Shown: piece after piece, positions 345-7,689 of the stretch | Numbering within the stretch: the first letter of the stretch is position 1 | Layout: each line of letters begins with the position of its first letter | Notes under the pieces: generated by a model | The model's input: only the letters and a program-made list of their open reading frames with translations | Database searches by the model: none | What the model was told of the DNA's origin: nothing | DNA from: a virus | DNA length: 7,689 bases | Strand: one strand, 5' to 3' | IMG/VR virus record: IMGVR_UViG_2671180228_000002 | Position numbers and translations under genes: made by a program

Positions 345-619
345 TCCATCCGTTCATTGCCTTCGTGCTGCTGGCGGCCATCGTGGCCGTATCCATTGGC
401 AGCGCCAAACTCGTTTCGTGGTGCCTCGACCGGCGTGGGGCGTCCGCCCGTCGCAGCGCACATGAAGCGGCCTTCGTAGCCCAGGCACGCGCCGAACTGG
501 CCGCAACCGGCTGGACCCCGAATCACGAAACGCTCTATCAGGCCGAGATTGCCGCCACCAAGCGCGGCGATCTGCTGGCCGCCGCTCGATTCGCCGAAGA
601 GCAGGAGCGCGCCGCATGA
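341..619 (+). CDS. Hypothetical single-pass membrane protein (92 aa)
   Basis: The GTG start overlaps the upstream stop. There is an N-terminal hydrophobic helix (IHPFIAFVLLAAIVAVSIGSA) followed by an Ala/Glu/Arg-rich helical tail. The stop overlaps the next ATG (ATGA at 616..619). Confidence 0.5.
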   Translation: MIHPFIAFVLLAAIVAVSIGSAKLVSWCLDRRGASARRSAHEAAFVAQARAELAATGWTPNHETLYQAEIAATKRGDLLAAARFAEEQERAA

Positions 620-792
620 GCAGGTACCCCTCATTCGCCGAGCTGGCAGAGTTCGATATGGGCCTCGCGGCAGTCGTTGTGTTCGTGTCGCTCGTCGTGG
701 GCGGAGCCATTGTCTCCATCGTGATTGAGCAGGCATGGCTGGCGCTTCGTCGCCTGTGGAAGCTTCGCAAGGATCGCTCCAATGGCCGGTGA
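616..792 (+). CDS. Small hydrophobic protein (58 aa), absent from the supplied ORF track
   Basis: My own translation is MSRYPSFAELAEFDMGLAAVVVFVSLVVGGAIVSIVIEQAWLALRRLWKLRKDRSNGR*. AGGAG at 603..607 lies 8 nt upstream of the ATG. It is ATGA-coupled to the upstream ORF and has one TM helix followed by a basic tail. Confidence 0.45.
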   Translation: MSRYPSFAELAEFDMGLAAVVVFVSLVVGGAIVSIVIEQAWLALRRLWKLRKDRSNGR

Positions 793-1888
793 GCGCGCGG
801 TGCTGGCCGAGTCGGGACTCCCCTCGTCTAACAGGGGAGTCAGTGAATTCAGGAACCCCGAGGGAACCCTGACGGTCGGCATCGACTGGTTCTCCGCTTC
901 GATCGATCTGCGCGCAGCGCTGGACGAGGTCGCGTTCCGTGATGGCGACAGCTTCGAAGAGGTCCGCCAGTGGATCGAGTTCTCCCCGGAAAACGCACGT
1001 ATTGCGGCCCTGCAGGTGTTCTGCTGGTTCTTCGCAGGGCTGGGCCTCGAACTGGATGAAGCAGCAGGCGGCGGTCGCTTCTACACGTGGCGAATCAAGA
1101 TCATCGACGCGGCCAAGAAGTTCGTCGGCATGATCGAACTGGGCGGCGAAGAGTGCCGCCGCGCCGATGGGACATATACCGCCCGCATCGAGCTAACCGG
1201 TGATGGATGCAAGGCGATAAGCGCAGCGCGCTGCGGCCATGCGCAGCGGTGGCTGGAGCTTCGAGCGAAGCTCGAAAGCTGCGCCGGAAGGATCACGCGT
1301 GTTGACGTGTGCGCCGATGACCTGGTGGGGGAATACCCATTGCGTCTGGCGCAGAAGTGGTACGCCGCTGGCGAGTTCGATAACCGTGGTCAGCGCCCGA
1401 AGGCGCAGCTGGTGGACGACTACGACAGCGGCGACGGCAAGACGTTCTATGTGGGCGGCAAGAAGTCGGAGAAGCAGCTTCGCGTCTACGAGAAGGGCAG
1501 GGAACAGGGCGATAAGAGTTCACCGTGGGTGCGCTATGAGGCGCAGTTCCGCAACTCCAACCGCAAGGAACTGCCCCTCGACATTCTGCGTGATCCGGCC
1601 TCCTACCTACTCGGGGCCTATCCGGTGCTGTCCTTTCTGCGCTGTGTTGCCACGCGCATCGAAATCACGAAAGCCGCCGTTGAGGCGACGTGGAAGAGCG
1701 TACGCCGCCACATCCGACGCCAGTACGGCGCAGCCCTCAATTTCATCGCCAAGAGTTGCCCGGACGATCAGGCATTGCGGGCGGTAATCGAATCCTGCAC
1801 TTCGCCATCGCTGCCGAAGTGGGTCACAGGCGAAACAGCAGCGCATTGGCCCGAAATCGCGGCCGTACAGCAAACCTCAAAAGGGTAA
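782..1888 (+). CDS. Rolling-circle replication initiator, Rep_trans (RstA / pT181 RepC-like) family, 368 aa
   Basis: Motifs typical of Rep_trans are present: GIDWFSASIDL near the N-terminus, RVDVCADD, and FYVGGKKSEKQLRVYEKG...PWVRYEAQFR with the candidate catalytic Tyr in RVYEK. The ATG at 782 has AAGGA 8 nt upstream. The track start at 725 is a TTG inside the upstream small ORF. Confidence 0.85.
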   Translation: MAGERAVLAESGLPSSNRGVSEFRNPEGTLTVGIDWFSASIDLRAALDEVAFRDGDSFEEVRQWIEFSPENARIAALQVFCWFFAGLGLELDEAAGGGRFYTWRIKIIDAAKKFVGMIELGGEECRRADGTYTARIELTGDGCKAISAARCGHAQRWLELRAKLESCAGRITRVDVCADDLVGEYPLRLAQKWYAAGEFDNRGQRPKAQLVDDYDSGDGKTFYVGGKKSEKQLRVYEKGREQGDKSSPWVRYEAQFRNSNRKELPLDILRDPASYLLGAYPVLSFLRCVATRIEITKAAVEATWKSVRRHIRRQYGAALNFIAKSCPDDQALRAVIESCTSPSLPKWVTGETAAHWPEIAAVQQTSKG

Positions 1889-1894
1889 CAGCGC

Positions 1895-2197
1895 ATGAGC
1901 ATCAAGATCACCGTCCTCAAGAACGAAATTGACGAACGCGTCGGCAGCTTCAAGAACGAAAAGGGCGAAGACGTCAAGTTCACCACTCGCAAGCAGAAGG
2001 CCAAGTTGGAAACCGCAGGTTTCGCCTACCCATTCGACGTGCGCCTGGAGGACGGTCAGAGCGGCTACCCCGAAGGTGAGTACGAGCTCGACGTCGAGTC
2101 CATGTTGCAGGTCAACAAGGGCGTTGCATCGCTAAGCAAGTTCACTGTGCTGCGGATGTTGCCGAAGGCTGCGCCGCGCGTAGCTGCCCAGGGCTAA
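1895..2197 (+). CDS. Probable ssDNA-binding protein (gV-like), 100 aa
   Basis: The call rests on size, position directly after rep, and a beta-rich charged sequence with no TM segment (MSIKITVLKNEIDERVGSFKNEKGEDVKF...). It is positional and compositional only. Confidence 0.6.
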   Translation: MSIKITVLKNEIDERVGSFKNEKGEDVKFTTRKQKAKLETAGFAYPFDVRLEDGQSGYPEGEYELDVESMLQVNKGVASLSKFTVLRMLPKAAPRVAAQG

Positions 2198-2199
2198 CG

Positions 2200-2421
2200 A
2201 TGTCCGATCCGGCACCCCTCTACGTGGTCGGCTGTGCTGCTGAAAACGTGCAGCAGGACGGCACGTGTTCGGTGCCTGTCTGGATGCCATACCACCAGCC
2301 AGTGTTGCCACCCCTGACATTGGCTGATGGAACCCTTGTCGCGTTCTCCATCGTTGGAGTTTGGGCAATCGGGTTGAAAGCGCGTCTCGTATTCCGCGCG
2401 GCGCGCATAGGGGTCTACTGA
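2200..2421 (+). CDS. Small membrane protein (73 aa), possible minor coat/assembly protein
   Basis: There is a C-terminal hydrophobic segment (TLVAFSIVGVWAIGL) followed by a basic tail. The stop overlaps the coat-gene ATG (TGATG at 2419..2423). Confidence 0.5.
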   Translation: MSDPAPLYVVGCAAENVQQDGTCSVPVWMPYHQPVLPPLTLADGTLVAFSIVGVWAIGLKARLVFRAARIGVY

Positions 2422-2678
2422 TGACGAGGAAAACCACAATGGAGTTCATGAACGCTGCTCGCCGTTTCGGCGCTTCCACCGTCGCCAAGATTGGCGCCGG
2501 TACCACCGCCCTGGTTGCTTCGGGTGCCGCACTGGCCTCGGGTTCGAGTTCGCCGGGTGCCGCCATCGCTGGCGAAATGGCCGGTGGCAAGGCCGATATC
2601 GGAGTGGTCATCGGTGCGTGCGCCGTGCTGATTGGCCTGATTCTGGTCTGGGCCTACACCCGCAAGGCTGCGAAGTAA
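2421..2678 (+). CDS. Major coat protein precursor (pVIII-like), 85 aa; predicted 46-aa mature form
   Basis: The long leader ends in ...VASGAALA, with a predicted cleavage before SGSSSP. The mature sequence SGSSSPGAAIAGEMAGGKADIGVVIGACAVLIGLILVWAYTRKAAK has an acidic N-part, a hydrophobic core and a basic C-terminus, like the 46-aa Pf1 coat as I recall it. AGGGG lies 7 nt upstream, and an intrinsic terminator follows the gene. Confidence 0.8.
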   Translation: MTRKTTMEFMNAARRFGASTVAKIGAGTTALVASGAALASGSSSPGAAIAGEMAGGKADIGVVIGACAVLIGLILVWAYTRKAAK

Positions 2679-2743: not shown

Positions 2744-2806
2744 ATGGGCTACTTCATCATTGTTGGCATCTGTGGTGCTTGCTGGCTTGCGTTTGAGGGC
2801 ATGTGA
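2744..2806 (+). CDS. Tiny hydrophobic ORF (20 aa), possible pVII/pIX-like minor coat protein
   Basis: The sequence is MGYFIIVGICGACWLAFEGM*. GGGGGA at 2732..2737 lies 6 nt upstream of the ATG. The stop overlaps the start of the next gene (TGATG). It is shorter than the 32-33 aa of Ff pVII/pIX. Confidence 0.4.
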   Translation: MGYFIIVGICGACWLAFEGM

Positions 2807-4119
2807 TGAGGCGCATCTTGTTCTTGCTGCTCGCGCTTTTGCCATCGTCGGCATTCGCGATTGACCAAGGCGAGGCGACAGAGCAAGCGATCAGCAATAT
2901 TCGGCAGTCGTGCAGCGGGGCTGTTGCCGGTGCATCGATTGACTCGGGCACGATAGGCCTGATTGTGGGCCCAGGTAGCGTAAACGCATTCGGCAACTGT
3001 CTCTTTGAAAATGGTGGATTTCAGGGGCGCCATAGCTCTACCGTCGCATTCGATCAGTCCTGCGAAGCTCGGGGTACTAAGACCACGCCATTCTTTCCAC
3101 CATCTGGCTCCGTGTCTTGTAGTCGTGGTTGTGAGGTCAAGTATGCAGACAACGGCGACGACACCACGTCCTATTGGAGTACCGGTCAAAGCTGCAACGA
3201 GAAGCCGGATTGCACTAAGCAGGGCGGCAACATGATCTGGAACGGTGCGCTGAAGGTTTGCCAGCCCGTTGAGCCCGAGTGTCCCAAGGGTAAGGTAAAG
3301 GTCGGTAACGCCTGTACAGATGAAAAGCCTTGCCCGGACGGCATGGCGCTTGTGGCTGGGTCTTGCAAGAAGAAAGATGAAGAGTGCCCGGCTGGCATGA
3401 TTCGCAGCCCCTCGGGCCAGTGCATTCCCGGTGATGGTCAGTGCGCCAAGGGCGAGGTTCGCGGGCCAGATGGCACCTGCAAGAGGGACAAGGACAACGA
3501 CGGTCAGCCGGATACCGATGACCCCGAGAGCTTCTCTGGCGGCGACACCTGCGAGTCTCCGCCGTCGTGCAGCGGCTCGCCGATCATGTGTGGGCAGGCG
3601 CGGATTCAATGGCGAATTGAATGCAATACCCGCCGTAACAACAACATCAGTGGTGGTCAGTGTACGCAGGCCGGTATGCCGACATGCACTGGTGAGAAAT
3701 GCAATGCCATGGAGTACACCCAGCTTCTGATGCAGTGGCGATCAGCGTGTGCCGTGGAGAAGCTTGCTGCAAAGCAAGACACGCCTGGACAAGGTGGCAA
3801 CCAAGGTGATGCAAATGGCAACGGCGTAGCCGATGTGCTCGAGGGCAGGGGAGACGTTACGCCCATCGGCGATGGCGCGGCGGACATCGCTAGTGCCAAG
3901 AAGTGGGGAATTCCTCTTTCAACCGACAATCTCGACACAAGCAACATGTTCGGTGGTGGTGGGTCATGCCCGCAACCGCCGTCGATCACGATCATGGGCA
4001 AGACGGTGAGCGCTGGTGACGTTCCATACTTCTGCCGAATTGCAGCGATTCTGCGCGGGTTGATCCTCATCTTTGGTGCATACACGGCAATTCGAATTCT
4101 GATGGGAGCGGTCTTCTAA
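2806..4119 (+). CDS. Adsorption / minor coat protein (pIII-like; C-terminal half resembles TspB-type inovirus attachment proteins), 437 aa
   Basis: There is a signal peptide (MRRILFLLLALLPSSAFA | IDQ), 26 Cys, Gly-rich linkers and a C-terminal membrane anchor (FCRIAAILRGLILIFGAYTAIRILMGAVF). The gene sits between the coat gene and the pVI/pI genes. The ATG at 2806 is preferred over the GTG at 2803. Confidence 0.75.
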   Translation: MRRILFLLLALLPSSAFAIDQGEATEQAISNIRQSCSGAVAGASIDSGTIGLIVGPGSVNAFGNCLFENGGFQGRHSSTVAFDQSCEARGTKTTPFFPPSGSVSCSRGCEVKYADNGDDTTSYWSTGQSCNEKPDCTKQGGNMIWNGALKVCQPVEPECPKGKVKVGNACTDEKPCPDGMALVAGSCKKKDEECPAGMIRSPSGQCIPGDGQCAKGEVRGPDGTCKRDKDNDGQPDTDDPESFSGGDTCESPPSCSGSPIMCGQARIQWRIECNTRRNNNISGGQCTQAGMPTCTGEKCNAMEYTQLLMQWRSACAVEKLAAKQDTPGQGGNQGDANGNGVADVLEGRGDVTPIGDGAADIASAKKWGIPLSTDNLDTSNMFGGGGSCPQPPSITIMGKTVSAGDVPYFCRIAAILRGLILIFGAYTAIRILMGAVF

Positions 4120-4439
4120 TGGGCATGGTTTCTGACTGGATCACCGATGGCATTTCGTCTTTGCTTGGCAAGACCAAGGAAGCGGCAGCAGGAATGCTGG
4201 GCAAACTTCTGGCGACTTTCGGGCTGACTACCGTCACGTTCAATGCGCTGCTGCCCAAGCTGAAAGAATTCGTGATGCAGTTCATCGGCGGTATTGATGG
4301 GCAGGCTTACGAGATGCTTTCGTACCTTGGTGTCGGCACATGCTTCTCCATGATCTTTTCCGCCCTTACGGTGCGTATGGCGTGGAAAATCTTCATCGTT
4401 CCTAAGTCAGTCGCCGATGGGCTGGGGTCGGGCTCATGA
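4119..4439 (+). CDS. pVI-like minor coat protein (DUF2523-like), 106 aa
   Basis: The protein is hydrophobic and lies immediately upstream of, and ATGA-coupled to, the Zot gene. It has a TAATG overlap with the pIII-like gene. Size and position are typical of inovirus gVI. Confidence 0.6.
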   Translation: MGMVSDWITDGISSLLGKTKEAAAGMLGKLLATFGLTTVTFNALLPKLKEFVMQFIGGIDGQAYEMLSYLGVGTCFSMIFSALTVRMAWKIFIVPKSVADGLGSGS

Positions 4440-5626
4440 TCTACTGGTATACGGGCCAGCCTGGACACGGGAAGACGCTGCACGGCATCGAGCGGCTACT
4501 TGAATTCAAGGATCAAGGGCGCATCGTCTACGCCTGCAACATTCGCGAGTTCGACTACGCCAAAACTGGTGTGCTGGAAATGACGCCGGAACAGTTCAGG
4601 GACTGGCCGAATTTCTTGCCTGATGGCGCAGTTGCTCTGGTTGATGAGGCCTATGAACACGGCATGCTGCCTAAGCGTCCGACAGGCTCTAAGGTCCCGC
4701 CTCACGTTGAACAGCTGGCGAAGCACCGCCACAAGGGTCTGGATTTCATCTTCATCAGCCAGTCGCCGGATAAGCAGTGCGATCAGTTCGTGCATGACCT
4801 GATTGAACGCCACGTGCATGTGCGTCGCCGTTTCGGCACGAAGTTTGTCGATCTTCGCGAGTTCGACAAGTTCGAGGCCCGTGCAGAGAAAGCAACACCG
4901 CTGGTCACGAAGCGGCGCACACTGCCCAAGCGTCCTATGGGCATGTACAAGTCCACTGAGCTGGACACTACCGAGCGGCGCATCCCCTGGTACGTCATCG
5001 CGTTGCCGGTTCTGGCCGTTGCCGCCGTCCTTATGATGTATTTCGCGTTCGGGCGCATGGATAAGCGAATGAACGGCGGAGACAGCCCCGCAGTCGGCGG
5101 TACTGCTCAAGCGGCTACACCGCACGACGGAGCACCTGCGACGGCGGGCGGTGCTGCCGCGCCGAGCCCGGCACAGCCACTCAAGGACTACGTCGACAAG
5201 TTCCTCCCGCGCATCCCATCACAACCGTGGAGCGCACCTGTCTATGACGGCGCACTCAGCCTGCCGGCCGAGCCGCCGCGCATCTTCTGCATGTCGTCGC
5301 TCGGCGGGGAGAACGGCCTCGGTGAACAGGACAAGCCCAGCTGCACGTGTGTGACAGAGCAGGGGACGCGGTACGAATTGGCAGATGAACCCACCTGTCG
5401 CATGGTTGCGCGAAGTGGGCAATACGAGCCCTATTTGCCGAAGCGTGAGGATCGCCTCGTCGATGGGCAGACGCAGATAAATCGCGGCATGCAGGAAATC
5501 AATCAACGCCAGGTTGAAGGCACGGCAATTGCTCGCAGTCAGCGAGCTATGGGGAGCTTTCCAGAGTCTCCGCCCATCAGTACCACTAGCTACATGACCA
5601 CACCTCGCGGGGAGAATCGGCTATGA
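4436..5626 (+). CDS. zot: Zot-family assembly ATPase (pI-like), 396 aa
   Basis: The N-terminus MIYWYTGQPGHGKT carries a Walker A motif (residues 7-14), and ALVDEA (about 67-72) is Walker B-like. A central TM helix (IPWYVIALPVLAVAAVLMMYFAF) is followed by a Pro/Ala-rich linker and a Cys-containing periplasmic domain (CMSS...SCTCVTEQGTRY...C). Confidence 0.92.
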   Translation: MIYWYTGQPGHGKTLHGIERLLEFKDQGRIVYACNIREFDYAKTGVLEMTPEQFRDWPNFLPDGAVALVDEAYEHGMLPKRPTGSKVPPHVEQLAKHRHKGLDFIFISQSPDKQCDQFVHDLIERHVHVRRRFGTKFVDLREFDKFEARAEKATPLVTKRRTLPKRPMGMYKSTELDTTERRIPWYVIALPVLAVAAVLMMYFAFGRMDKRMNGGDSPAVGGTAQAATPHDGAPATAGGAAAPSPAQPLKDYVDKFLPRIPSQPWSAPVYDGALSLPAEPPRIFCMSSLGGENGLGEQDKPSCTCVTEQGTRYELADEPTCRMVARSGQYEPYLPKREDRLVDGQTQINRGMQEINQRQVEGTAIARSQRAMGSFPESPPISTTSYMTTPRGENRL

Positions 5627-6249
5627 CCAGCGGCGGTCGTGAGTTGCTCAAGTGGCTGGCGTTGGCACTGATGACCGGCGATCACGTCGTGACCGTTTTC
5701 CACTTGGGCCATGTGTCAGTTGTGTCCGAGCTTGGCCGTGTAGCGTTTCCGGTCTTCGCGTTGGTGATGGCGTTCAATCTTGCTCAGCCGGGCGCAGACG
5801 CAGCGAAGTCGGCCCGGCGTCTGGCGGCTTGGGGTATTGCGGCAACGCCCGTGGCTGTCCTGGCATTCGGCCAGTTGCTGCCGCTGAATGTCCTACTGAC
5901 GTTCGCTGTGGCCGCTGTTTGTGTATGGGCTATTGAACGCCGGTATTGGCTGCTGGTCGTGCTTCTCGCGGTCATCGCCCCGGCGTGGCTGGACTACGCG
6001 TGGCCGGGCGTGTGGCTTGTTCTCGCTGGATGGCGTTGGTACAGGGGGCAGGGTGGTCAACCGTGGCTGGTGTGGGGCTGCATGGGCCTGTTGTGCGCCT
6101 ATAACGGCAATGCGTGGGCTTTGCTCGCCATTCCGGCGCTGCGGCTCGGCCACTTCAACGTTGCTTTGCCGCGTTCCGGCAAGGTCTTCTATGGCTACTA
6201 CGTAGGCCACCTTGCCGCGATGGTGGCGCTGGCGGGACTAGGGACATGA
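5623..6249 (+). CDS. traX: TraX-family (F-pilin N-acetylase-like) polytopic membrane protein, 208 aa
   Basis: The motifs ELLKWLALALMTGDH, LGRVAFPVFALVMAFNL and LNVLLTFAV match my recollection of the TraX family consensus (LK.iA...M.iDH, GR.aFP.Fa). There are about 6 hydrophobic helices. The gene has an ATGA overlap with zot, and GGGGAG lies 8 nt upstream. Confidence 0.72.
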   Translation: MTSGGRELLKWLALALMTGDHVVTVFHLGHVSVVSELGRVAFPVFALVMAFNLAQPGADAAKSARRLAAWGIAATPVAVLAFGQLLPLNVLLTFAVAAVCVWAIERRYWLLVVLLAVIAPAWLDYAWPGVWLVLAGWRWYRGQGGQPWLVWGCMGLLCAYNGNAWALLAIPALRLGHFNVALPRSGKVFYGYYVGHLAAMVALAGLGT

Positions 6250-6687
6250 GCCGGACTGCACCCAGCCGTTCTCCACGCGCCTCAAGCGCGTATCGCCGAC
6301 GCATCGTTCATTCGGGCCTAGTGGCGGCGGTCGGTGCACGCGCTCATACTCTGCGGCCCGTTGCGCTTCTTCTCGGCGCTTCTCTGCCGCAATTTTCGCA
6401 AAGCCCATTGGGTCAGGGTCGTTGGCGATCTTGTTGAGATCATCGATCGCTTTGTTTAGCTGGACCTCTTGTTGCTTCTGGACGGCATAGCCCAGCGAGC
6501 CCAGGACTGTGCAGGTTGCGAGTCCGCAGGCGCTCATTCCAAGAAACACACCCAGGGCAACCTTCCATACCAAGCCGGTGCCGCTACCTGAAGTTTGGCT
6601 TCGAACAGGTCGATTGCGATTGCCGCGGAACTGCACGTCCTGCAGATCGGGCACGCTGAAGGTTGGTTCATGTCGTTCGCGGTCCAT
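6238..6687 (-). CDS. Hypothetical single-pass membrane protein (149 aa) with a charged helical and Cys-pair C-terminal domain
   Basis: The ATG at 6687 has GGGGAG 4 nt upstream. The track start at 6699 is a TTG. The TM segment is LVWKVALGVFLGMSACGLATCTVLGSLGYAV. The 3' end overlaps the traX-like 3' end convergently by 12 bp. Codon usage is visibly less GC3-biased than in neighbouring genes. Confidence 0.6.
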   Translation of the reverse strand: MDRERHEPTFSVPDLQDVQFRGNRNRPVRSQTSGSGTGLVWKVALGVFLGMSACGLATCTVLGSLGYAVQKQQEVQLNKAIDDLNKIANDPDPMGFAKIAAEKRREEAQRAAEYERVHRPPPLGPNERCVGDTRLRRVENGWVQSGSCP

Positions 6688-6727
6688 ACGGCTCCCCAAG
6701 GCGTCCTGCGCGCATTGTAGCCGGGGT

Positions 6728-6755: not shown

Positions 6756-7136
6756 TTACACGCGCTGGCGAGGTCTCGGCCCCGGTACCGGCAGGACACC
6801 TGCAGGAGGCTCGGCGTCAGGGCCAGCCATCGCCACCGCCGACCGCTGTTTGCGCCGGCTCACCACGTCCCGCAGATTGACGACAGTGGCAGGACGATCC
6901 CATGCCACTGCAGGAAGATTGCCACCACGCTTGGAACTGTCGATCGACGGCGCAGAACGCGCAGCTTCCATCATCCGGCGCCATTCCTGCGCTTGGCAGG
7001 CGGTGAGCGACAGCCAGGCCAGATCCTCGGGAAGTAGCTCGCGGCCCTCAGGGGTGATCAAGCGATCACCGAGGAAAGAAAAACCGGCCCAAGGGCCGGT
7101 CAAGTCGATACGGTGGTGCGGGTCGAACACGATCAT
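6756..7136 (-). CDS. Hypothetical phage protein (126 aa), possibly DUF3653-like
   Basis: The N-terminal motif DLTGPWAGFSFLGDRLITPEGRELLPEDLAWL resembles the W.GW...G..L.tPeG pattern I associate with DUF3653 phage proteins. The gene is ATGA-coupled to the repressor gene (7133..7136). The C-terminal half is Pro/Arg-rich and low in complexity. Confidence 0.55.
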   Translation of the reverse strand: MIVFDPHHRIDLTGPWAGFSFLGDRLITPEGRELLPEDLAWLSLTACQAQEWRRMMEAARSAPSIDSSKRGGNLPAVAWDRPATVVNLRDVVSRRKQRSAVAMAGPDAEPPAGVLPVPGPRPRQRV

Positions 7137-7606
7137 GCCGCGATCTCATCCTTGGCCGGGGACTGAGGGCGCAGGCAAGAGCCGAGCCAGAGGCCCAGCC
7201 ATTGCCACGCGGAGCCAACAAAAGCCCAGATTCGACGGATACGCCATTTCGCATAATGTATATCGTGCAAGGCATTGCCAGTCTGCGGCATAGCCTGCAC
7301 GTCGTGGGGTAGGGTGAAGCCAACGGCCAGGCACAAGGCCATCGCCGTTGCAGCCAGACGTTTCCAGAACGTGCGCTCAGGCGAAGTAAGCGCCGCACGC
7401 TTCATGATCTCAATCGCCTGTTTTTCCGGCTCCGGATGCCCTTGGATACGGAGCGCATCTGCCACTACCCACACCTGCGGCACACGCCTACCCATGCGGT
7501 AGTGGCCGATTGCGCCGTCCGTGATACCCAGCAGCGGCGCCAGCTTTGAATAGCTCTCGACCTTGGCCGCCACGCGGGTTCGCTCAAAGAAGTCATTCCA
7601 GTCCAT
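7133..7606 (-). CDS. HTH transcriptional repressor (phage immunity-type, DUF3693-like) with hydrophobic C-terminal segments, 157 aa
   Basis: An HTH-like segment YSKLAPLLGITDGAIGHYRMGRRVP lies near the N-terminus. The gene is divergent from the main promoter, with GAGG 5 nt upstream of the ATG. Hydrophobic stretches are LAATAMALCLAVGFTL and IWAFVGSAWQWLGLWLGSCL. Confidence 0.72.
   Translation of the reverse strand: MDWNDFFERTRVAAKVESYSKLAPLLGITDGAIGHYRMGRRVPQVWVVADALRIQGHPEPEKQAIEIMKRAALTSPERTFWKRLAATAMALCLAVGFTLPHDVQAMPQTGNALHDIHYAKWRIRRIWAFVGSAWQWLGLWLGSCLRPQSPAKDEIAA
7246..7273. other. dif-like XerCD recombination site (candidate attP)
   Basis: The site reads ATTTCGCATAA-TGTATA-TCGTGCAAGGC. 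The first 17 bp match the XerC arm plus central region of dif (E. coli dif is GGTGCGCATAATGTATATTATGTTAAAT). Its reverse complement contains TATACATTATGCGAA, the 15-bp core that I recall being reported as shared by Xanthomonas dif and the attP of Cf1c, phiLf and XacF1. The XerD arm is degenerate, with about 4 of 11 matches. Confidence 0.75.
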
Positions 7607-7689
7607 AGCCGCCTCGGGTTCGTGTACGGGTGTAGCCTACAGGTGTTGACACCTACGGATGTAGGCGCGTATAAAGCCCCCATCGCCTA
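7595..7689. repeat. Right copy of the exact 95-bp terminal direct repeat
   Basis: Identical to 1..95. It contains the repressor start codon (7604..7606, minus) and a second copy of the promoter/operator region, with -35 at 7646..7651 and -10 at 7670..7675. Confidence 0.97.

Follow-up and report, generated by a model that had tools for sequence, protein, structure and literature searches.

Why does a filamentous phage carry, at the end of its morphogenesis operon, a relative of the protein required for pilin acetylation in the F plasmid, and which substrate would such a protein serve? The question is raised by IMG/VR virus record IMGVR_UViG_2671180228_000002, a DNA stretch of 7,689 nucleotides (nt; the window, meaning here the whole stretch that was analysed) from a filamentous phage of Stenotrophomonas, in which the assembly gene zot is directly followed by a gene of the TraX family. 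A first, sequence-only reading of this DNA had named two candidate targets, the phage's own major coat protein and a pilin or receptor of the host. In our judgement the balance tips slightly towards an enzyme that N-acetylates the coat of its own phage, and the observation carrying this reading is the repeated co-segregation of TraX with a particular N-terminal coat motif. The features on which the argument turns are the following (lengths of proteins in amino acids, aa).

4436..5626, + strand: zot/pI assembly ATPase, directly 5' of the TraX gene (Pfam Zot E=2.1e-14; PHROG 197 E=1.1e-79)
5623..6249, + strand: TraX-family gene, 208 aa
2421..2678, + strand: major coat precursor, 85 aa (PHROG 1859 E=3.7e-05; leader, hydrophobic helix, basic tail)
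2538..2552, + strand: S-G-S-S-S codons, predicted mature coat N-terminus and proposed acetyl acceptor

The coat open reading frame (ORF) encodes 85 aa with a C-terminal hydrophobic stretch and a basic tail, and homologous coats have been found in 100+ related loci. Its best -3/-1 leader-peptidase site is ALA|SGSSS, which would leave a 39-aa leader and a mature protein of 46 aa, as had been described from the sequence; this description is confirmed only in part, cleavage being a prediction and the leader length varying with the start codon. The first ATG, at 2421, shares bases with the stop codon of the preceding ORF, has AGGGG 8 nt 5' and gives the 39-aa leader, and the second, at 2439, has GAGGA 8 nt 5' and gives one of 33 aa. 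Among the proteins of the window only the coat carries the motif considered below; pIII, e.g., would start with IDQGE. F-pilin, the proven TraX substrate, has the mature start AGSSGQDLM (checked against the annotated traA), and the window coat would start with SGSSS. F-pilin is cut between Ala51 and Ala52 by LepB and then N-acetylated in a step requiring F TraX (PMC7690428, PMC7555446), and the coat motif resembles the N-terminus of this one proven substrate of the family.

Further inovirus loci have been gathered with Zot queries and classed as TraX-positive or TraX-negative by what follows zot, and the coat gene of each has been found by its features, namely a leader, an acidic or amphipathic N-terminal part, a hydrophobic helix and a basic tail. 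The motif has been defined as A-x-A, the cleavage and then [S/A/T/G]-G-[G/S], and the motif test is independent of the cleavage site chosen; an automated re-picking of cleavage sites has been discarded, since the A-x-A sites that it picked lay further downstream, within the mature region. Counted over unique coat precursors, the motif is present in 64/69 from TraX-positive and 0/42 from TraX-negative loci, a result that is unchanged by about six of the 42 TraX-negative "coats" being false calls of other small membrane proteins. The five TraX-positive exceptions are near-variants (SSGSPG, SGASPG, ADSASPG, GATSPG), and the coats of a further ~45 TraX-negative phages, leaderless and of the phiSHP2 or phiLf type, are likewise without the motif. 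Examples of TraX-positive coats are SGSSSPGAAIAGE in this window, SGGPAEAITAEI, SGGGGVDVGDVV in Xf109 and SMA6, and SGGGGDFDG in Cf1c and XacF1.

Two coat families that contain both classes of phage are split cleanly by the presence of TraX. The first has SGGPAEAIT in TraX-positive members and AGPGEAIT or TDPGAAIT in TraX-negative ones, and the second has SGGGGVDVGDVV versus ADIDISAVV. On a neighbour-joining tree of 147 non-redundant Zot lineages of Xanthomonadaceae inoviruses, 77 tips are TraX-positive with the motif, 7 TraX-positive with a near-variant and 63 TraX-negative without the motif, and there is no TraX-negative tip (0) with it. Parsimony on this tree requires at least seven changes of TraX state, each time together with the motif. 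TraX presence has thus co-segregated repeatedly with the N-terminal motif of the coat, and the suggestion of coat acylation made from the sequence alone gains real comparative support from it. A recent swap of the coat 5' end together with TraX has been considered as the cause and rejected; the contrasting TraX-positive and TraX-negative modules share only ~72% DNA identity and are therefore old lineages. Where a TraX gene lies near a TraX-negative locus, the gene belongs, in each case examined, to a second prophage placed head-to-head across a dif core. Six such IMG/VR loci (L201, L232, L296, L301, L310, L321) hold two inovirus prophages round one dif core, one with and one without TraX; simple tandem integration by XerCD would not be expected to give this orientation, which could be an artefact of assembly.

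The assignment of the gene product to TraX, a polytopic membrane protein, had been tied beforehand to a profile hidden Markov model test, and it is borne out by Pfam TraX PF05857, which matches residues 6-203 of 208 with E=2.6e-42 and 145.6 bits (cut-off 25), well outside the range of chance. The two motifs quoted from the sequence have been located; LKWLALALMTGDH spans residues 9-21 and GRVAFPVFALV residues 38-48. PHROG 5529 ("transfer protein") aligns residues 1-204 with profile positions 1-208 of 213 at E=3.5e-83. The AlphaFold2 model has a pLDDT of 94.7 and nine helices along the whole chain, as predicted for a polytopic membrane protein. The two F-type equivalog models are missed by a wide distance: TIGR02755 gives 48.9 bits against a cut-off of 149.35 (F TraX itself 408.7) and NF010260 43.1 bits against 419 (F TraX itself 539.3). 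Judged by these profiles, a place within F-type TraX proper is refuted. No solved homologue offers a mechanism to borrow, Foldseek with the model having returned nothing at E<=0.001 from PDB and BFVD and a profile search of PDB sequences 0 matches at E<=10.

F TraX and the window protein nevertheless share much: both match PF05857, F TraX is a polytopic inner-membrane protein with the same K, D-H, R, N, R, Y and H, and in both cases the gene is distal in a filament-biogenesis operon and non-essential. They differ in length (248 versus 208 aa), are ~30% identical, and the window has no traA/traQ or type IV secretion context, the proposed substrate being a phage coat and not a pilin. IncP (RP4-type) TrbP is ~35% identical, is also the last gene of its trb/morphogenesis operon and carries the same NCBI name, but it stands in the context trbL-M-N-O-P and the window has no trb genes. 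Across 142 diverse TraX-family members, a set of polar residues (K10, D20, H21, R39, N52, R66, N89, R184, Y193 and H196) is at least 88% conserved, and all of them are present in the window protein as well as in F TraX and IncP TrbP. Their retention despite ~30-35% identity speaks for catalytic activity with the chemistry of F TraX. This bears on the idea that TraX is a non-catalytic helper, i.e., a chaperone or docking factor that assists insertion or assembly of coats whose long leaders are weakly hydrophobic, somewhat like TraQ in the case of F-propilin. The gene's coupling to pI/Zot would suit such a helper, and so would the unusually long Gly/Ala/Thr-rich leaders of window-type coats; the polar residues kept throughout the family, the proven F enzyme included, argue for catalysis instead, Xf-type TraX-positive coats carry ordinary signal peptides, and the association is with the mature N-terminus and not with the type of leader. 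We regard a purely non-catalytic role as very improbable.

Members of the Acyl_transf_3 superfamily take acyl groups from acyl-CoA in the cytoplasm and pass them to acceptors that are extracytoplasmic. The acyltransferase_3 comparison proposed in the sequence-only reading has come out negative, the window protein having no match to PF01757 even at E<=10, while 4/59 diverse TraX-family members do match (best E=1.1e-6), which hints at a distant link, at the profile level, between TraX and membrane acyltransferases. A general envelope acyltransferase, carried as a lysogenic-conversion moron and acylating lipid, glycan or peptidoglycan in the manner of phage Oac/OafA, would draw on that distant relationship, on the standalone chromosomal orthologue described below, which lies among housekeeping genes (alpha/beta hydrolase, TonB receptor, AlkZ), and on RP4 TrbP having no pilin-related phenotype. 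The Oac/OafA O-acetylases of the Acyl_transf_3 family resemble the window protein in that both are phage-encoded membrane acyltransferases with several helices and presumed extracytoplasmic acceptors; the O-acetylases have glycan acceptors and are encoded by independent morons, whereas the TraX gene lies in an assembly operon and correlates with a protein N-terminus. Given the missing profile match in the window protein, a phage gene that is never an independent moron but always joined to zot in the morphogenesis operon, and a coat-motif association left unexplained, we consider this alternative unlikely.

The junction with zot has been read directly from the sequence and agrees with its first description. 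The TraX ATG at 5623-5625 overlaps the zot/pI TGA in ctATGAcc (ATGA overlap 5623..5626, + strand), a stop/start overlap that implies translational coupling of the two genes, and a Shine-Dalgarno-like GGGGAG at 5609..5614 (+ strand) precedes the ATG by 8 nt and falls within the 3' end of zot. Comparably tight junctions are found in Cf1c, where zot ends and TraX starts at 3647, and in Xf109 (4842/4844). With TraX the + strand genes of the module come to an end, and the ORF that follows (6238..6699) is convergent on the - strand. The claim that the gene is coupled to the assembly gene and is not an independent moron is strengthened by public genomes, in which zot lies directly 5' of TraX in 75/75 IMG/VR loci with enough upstream DNA; the same arrangement occurs in 19 loci among GTDB species genomes. 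Zot-linked inovirus TraX genes (PHROG 5529) resemble that of the window in lying after zot and before convergent DUF3653/HTH genes and in belonging to phages of the same host clade. The closest relatives of the window phage are uncultured IMG/VR prophages, e.g., L085 with 96% TraX identity. The phages PSH1, SMA7 and phiSHP2 have no TraX gene, which is therefore dispensable for inovirus assembly in general, and coat acetylation is accordingly to be seen as a lineage-specific accessory step and not as a general requirement.

Among isolated phages, a tblastn search of the phage collection has found orthologues in Cf1c, XacF1, Xf109, Xf409, SMA6, XaF13 and fSU1, with 49-58% identity over 94-99% of the protein; among them are Cf1cp5 of Cf1c, ORF8 of Xf109, ORF192 of SMA6 and ORF8 of XaF13. 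In the four whose full annotation was read (Cf1c, XacF1, Xf109, SMA6) the orthologue directly follows zot, and the coats of Xf109, SMA6 and Cf1c/XacF1, where readable, have a Ser-Gly-Gly-type start akin to that of the window coat. The coat/pVI/Zot module of the window is distant from these cultured isolates, Zot being only ~37% identical. The gene, its TraX homology and the idea of an action on the host pilus are already known: Ahmad et al. (2014) noted that ORF9 of XacF1 resembles the TraX "F pilin acetylation protein" and suggested a change of the host type IV pilus (PMC4076744). Of the two targets named in the sequence-only reading, the host pilin is thus not new. In its wider form this alternative holds that the enzyme acetylates a host surface structure, either type IV pilin or another receptor, and thereby causes superinfection exclusion or, in infected Xanthomonas, altered motility and virulence. 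It can point to XacF1-infected cells, which have less PilA and less twitching (PMC4076744), and phage-free chromosomal copies under purifying selection agree with a substrate in the host or with an exclusion function that has been domesticated. The strict co-segregation of TraX with the coat motif does not follow from this alternative, and a PADLOC scan for defence families has returned no match for TraX or for the chromosomal TraX copy. The N-terminus of type IV pilin is made and N-methylated by PilD on the cytoplasmic side and offers no free periplasmic amine. TraX-negative phages co-reside with TraX-positive prophages at the same dif site, so that any exclusion would not be absolute. A host-directed enzyme appears to us improbable, to the same degree as a general envelope acyltransferase, and the coat-motif association is predicted neither by these two alternatives nor by the non-catalytic helper.

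Under the reading we prefer, acetylation of the phage's own coat, TraX would be made together with pI/Zot through the overlapping stop and start codons. The major coat precursor would insert into the inner membrane, leader peptidase would cut after A-L-A and leave a flexible Ser-Gly-Ser-Ser-Ser N-terminus on the periplasmic side, and TraX, with an active site facing the periplasm, would move an acetyl group, presumably from cytoplasmic acetyl-CoA, to the alpha-amino group so exposed, ahead of the subunit's entry into the filament. By analogy we infer a parallel to F-pilin maturation, in which leader peptidase acts first and TraX second. The virion surface would then carry ~10^3 blocked, charge-neutralised N-termini with one positive charge less per subunit, and surface charge, antigenicity or aminopeptidase resistance might be altered as a consequence.

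Several points weigh against this scheme. Coat and TraX lie in one module, and part of their association is therefore co-inheritance; the cleavage after A-L-A is itself a predicted site. The cyclic pilin of RP4 lacks a free N-terminus. The Xf coat (SGGGGVDV...) was reportedly protein-sequenced in 1978, and if this was direct Edman degradation from residue 1, its N-terminus was free. The searchable literature has yielded no mass-spectrometric or Edman sign of a blocked or acetylated coat N-terminus in TraX-positive phages, the Xf/Cf coats included, and no biochemical evidence that any inovirus coat is acetylated. The TrbP homologue of RP4 has no known role in RP4 transfer (PMC11045733). The most direct difficulty is posed by TraX copies that stand apart from any phage coat gene. 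About 17 Stenotrophomonas species carry a syntenic chromosomal TraX, in the order alpha/beta hydrolase, TraX, ... TonB receptor/AlkZ, lacking a dif core and any phage gene within 8 kb:

~8001-8620 of each locus L028-L046 and L063: chromosomal TraX of GTDB Stenotrophomonas genomes

These copies are intact, with a median pairwise ratio of nonsynonymous to synonymous substitution (dN/dS) of 0.24. A TraX copy without zot is also present in several Xanthomonas species, in some cases beside a dif core. Such chromosomal and zot-less copies mean that TraX has a substrate or role for which no linked coat gene is needed, and a role confined to the coat leaves the intact phage-free copies unexplained.

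The chromosomal Stenotrophomonas copy looks like a domesticated or ancestral gene. In a neighbour-joining tree the chromosomal TraX clades are nested among phage sequences, far from plasmid TrbP and TraX. The zot-less Xanthomonas TraX looks like a retained remnant at a filamentous-phage integration site, and related IMG/VR contigs also have a zot-less copy right beside the dif core. In the zot-less loci L026, L143 and L146 the dif core lies just 3' of TraX within ~50 bp, and in L027 and L040 further off. A wider proposal would take the zot-linked TraX as a dedicated capsid-maturation enzyme that has co-evolved, by being gained and lost repeatedly, with its [S/A/T/G]-G-[G/S] acceptor N-terminus and has been domesticated by Stenotrophomonas and Xanthomonas chromosomes, where it would act in trans to help or exclude resident filamentous phages; to this we give a little less than an even chance. 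The pairing of TraX with an alpha/beta hydrolase, seen both in the F plasmid and on the Stenotrophomonas chromosome, has been set aside as coincidence, the two hydrolases being unrelated (BLASTP E=1.0).

Evidence that matches the enzyme to the N-terminus of the phage's own coat appears to be new in the literature searched. Filamentous-phage coats are the textbook case of unmodified, self-assembling helical subunits, and phage display is built on them; in Pseudomonas, Vibrio, Xanthomonas and Stenotrophomonas, both biofilm formation and virulence are shaped by inoviruses. Were coat acetylation to be true, a pilin-type N-acetylase would have been re-used for capsid maturation, and a system of post-translational modification would for the first time be described for the major coat of an inovirus. 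The inovirus assembly pathway would then contain an added maturation step, and predictions of virion surface charge, antigenicity and stability would change. TraX, whose biochemistry and structure are unsolved, would also gain a second substrate system that is experimentally easy, since XacF1, Xf109 and SMA6 give abundant coat.

The comparison also corrects a database habit. The orthologue is annotated "TrbP" or "trbP-related" in Xf109, SMA6 and XaF13, and the window protein scores 278.6 bits (cut-off 206) on NCBIfam NF010454, "conjugal transfer protein TrbP". Phage and Xanthomonadaceae TraX proteins reach 279-347 bits on this model, whereas real IncP TrbP, with 150.1 bits, stays below the cut-off. 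A model that rejects the real IncP TrbP makes the "TrbP" label a naming artefact, due to model construction and not to orthology; NF010454 defines a Xanthomonadaceae/inovirus clade and not plasmid TrbP, and many proteins of phage morphogenesis operons are misnamed "conjugal transfer protein TrbP".

The window itself is a complete inovirus genome with circularly redundant ends. Bases ~16-80 are repeated at ~7610-7674, with a unit of ~7594 nt, and the redundancy implies that the whole circular phage genome of ~7594 nt is represented; the terminal overlap spans 1-95 and 7595-7689. By its DNA, the phage is related in mosaic fashion to the Stenotrophomonas phages PSH1, SMA7 and phiSHP2, and the genes identified in it are all of inovirus type (rep, ssb, coat, pIII, pVI, zot, DUF3653, HTH). 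Besides the four features given above it contains the following.

725..1888, + strand: rep
1895..2197, + strand: single-stranded-DNA-binding protein
2200..2421, + strand: small membrane protein
2803..4119, + strand: pIII-like protein
4119..4439, + strand: pVI-like protein (DUF2523)
6238..6699, - strand: ORF153, convergent to the TraX gene
6756..7136, - strand: DUF3653 protein
7133..7606, - strand: HTH repressor (HTH/DUF3693)

A promoter and terminator scan of the window has found 0 promoters and 6 terminator-like sites, with 5.9 expected. A dif-like attP core, TTCGCATAATGTATA, lies at 7248-7262 within the HTH/DUF3693 repressor gene and implies XerCD-mediated integration; the same 15-mer is the annotated attP of Xf109 and borders many related prophages. 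The DUF3653 protein is homologous to PSB15, which in phiLf-UK binds the packaging signal, interacts with cardiolipin and thioredoxin and acts as an assembly checkpoint (bioRxiv 10.1101/2024.03.19.585677), and it matches the VC1465/XafT family of NCBIfam weakly, below the cut-off. ORF153, of 153 aa, overlaps the 3' end of TraX by 12 nt and has no match in the PADLOC scan; other Stenotrophomonas inoviruses, TraX-negative ones included, have its homologues 3' of either TraX or zot. Finally, a membrane-protein ORF of 58 aa (MSRYPSFAELAEFDMGL...) at 616-792 (+ strand), 5' of rep and overlapping its start, recurs in phiSHP2-like prophages.

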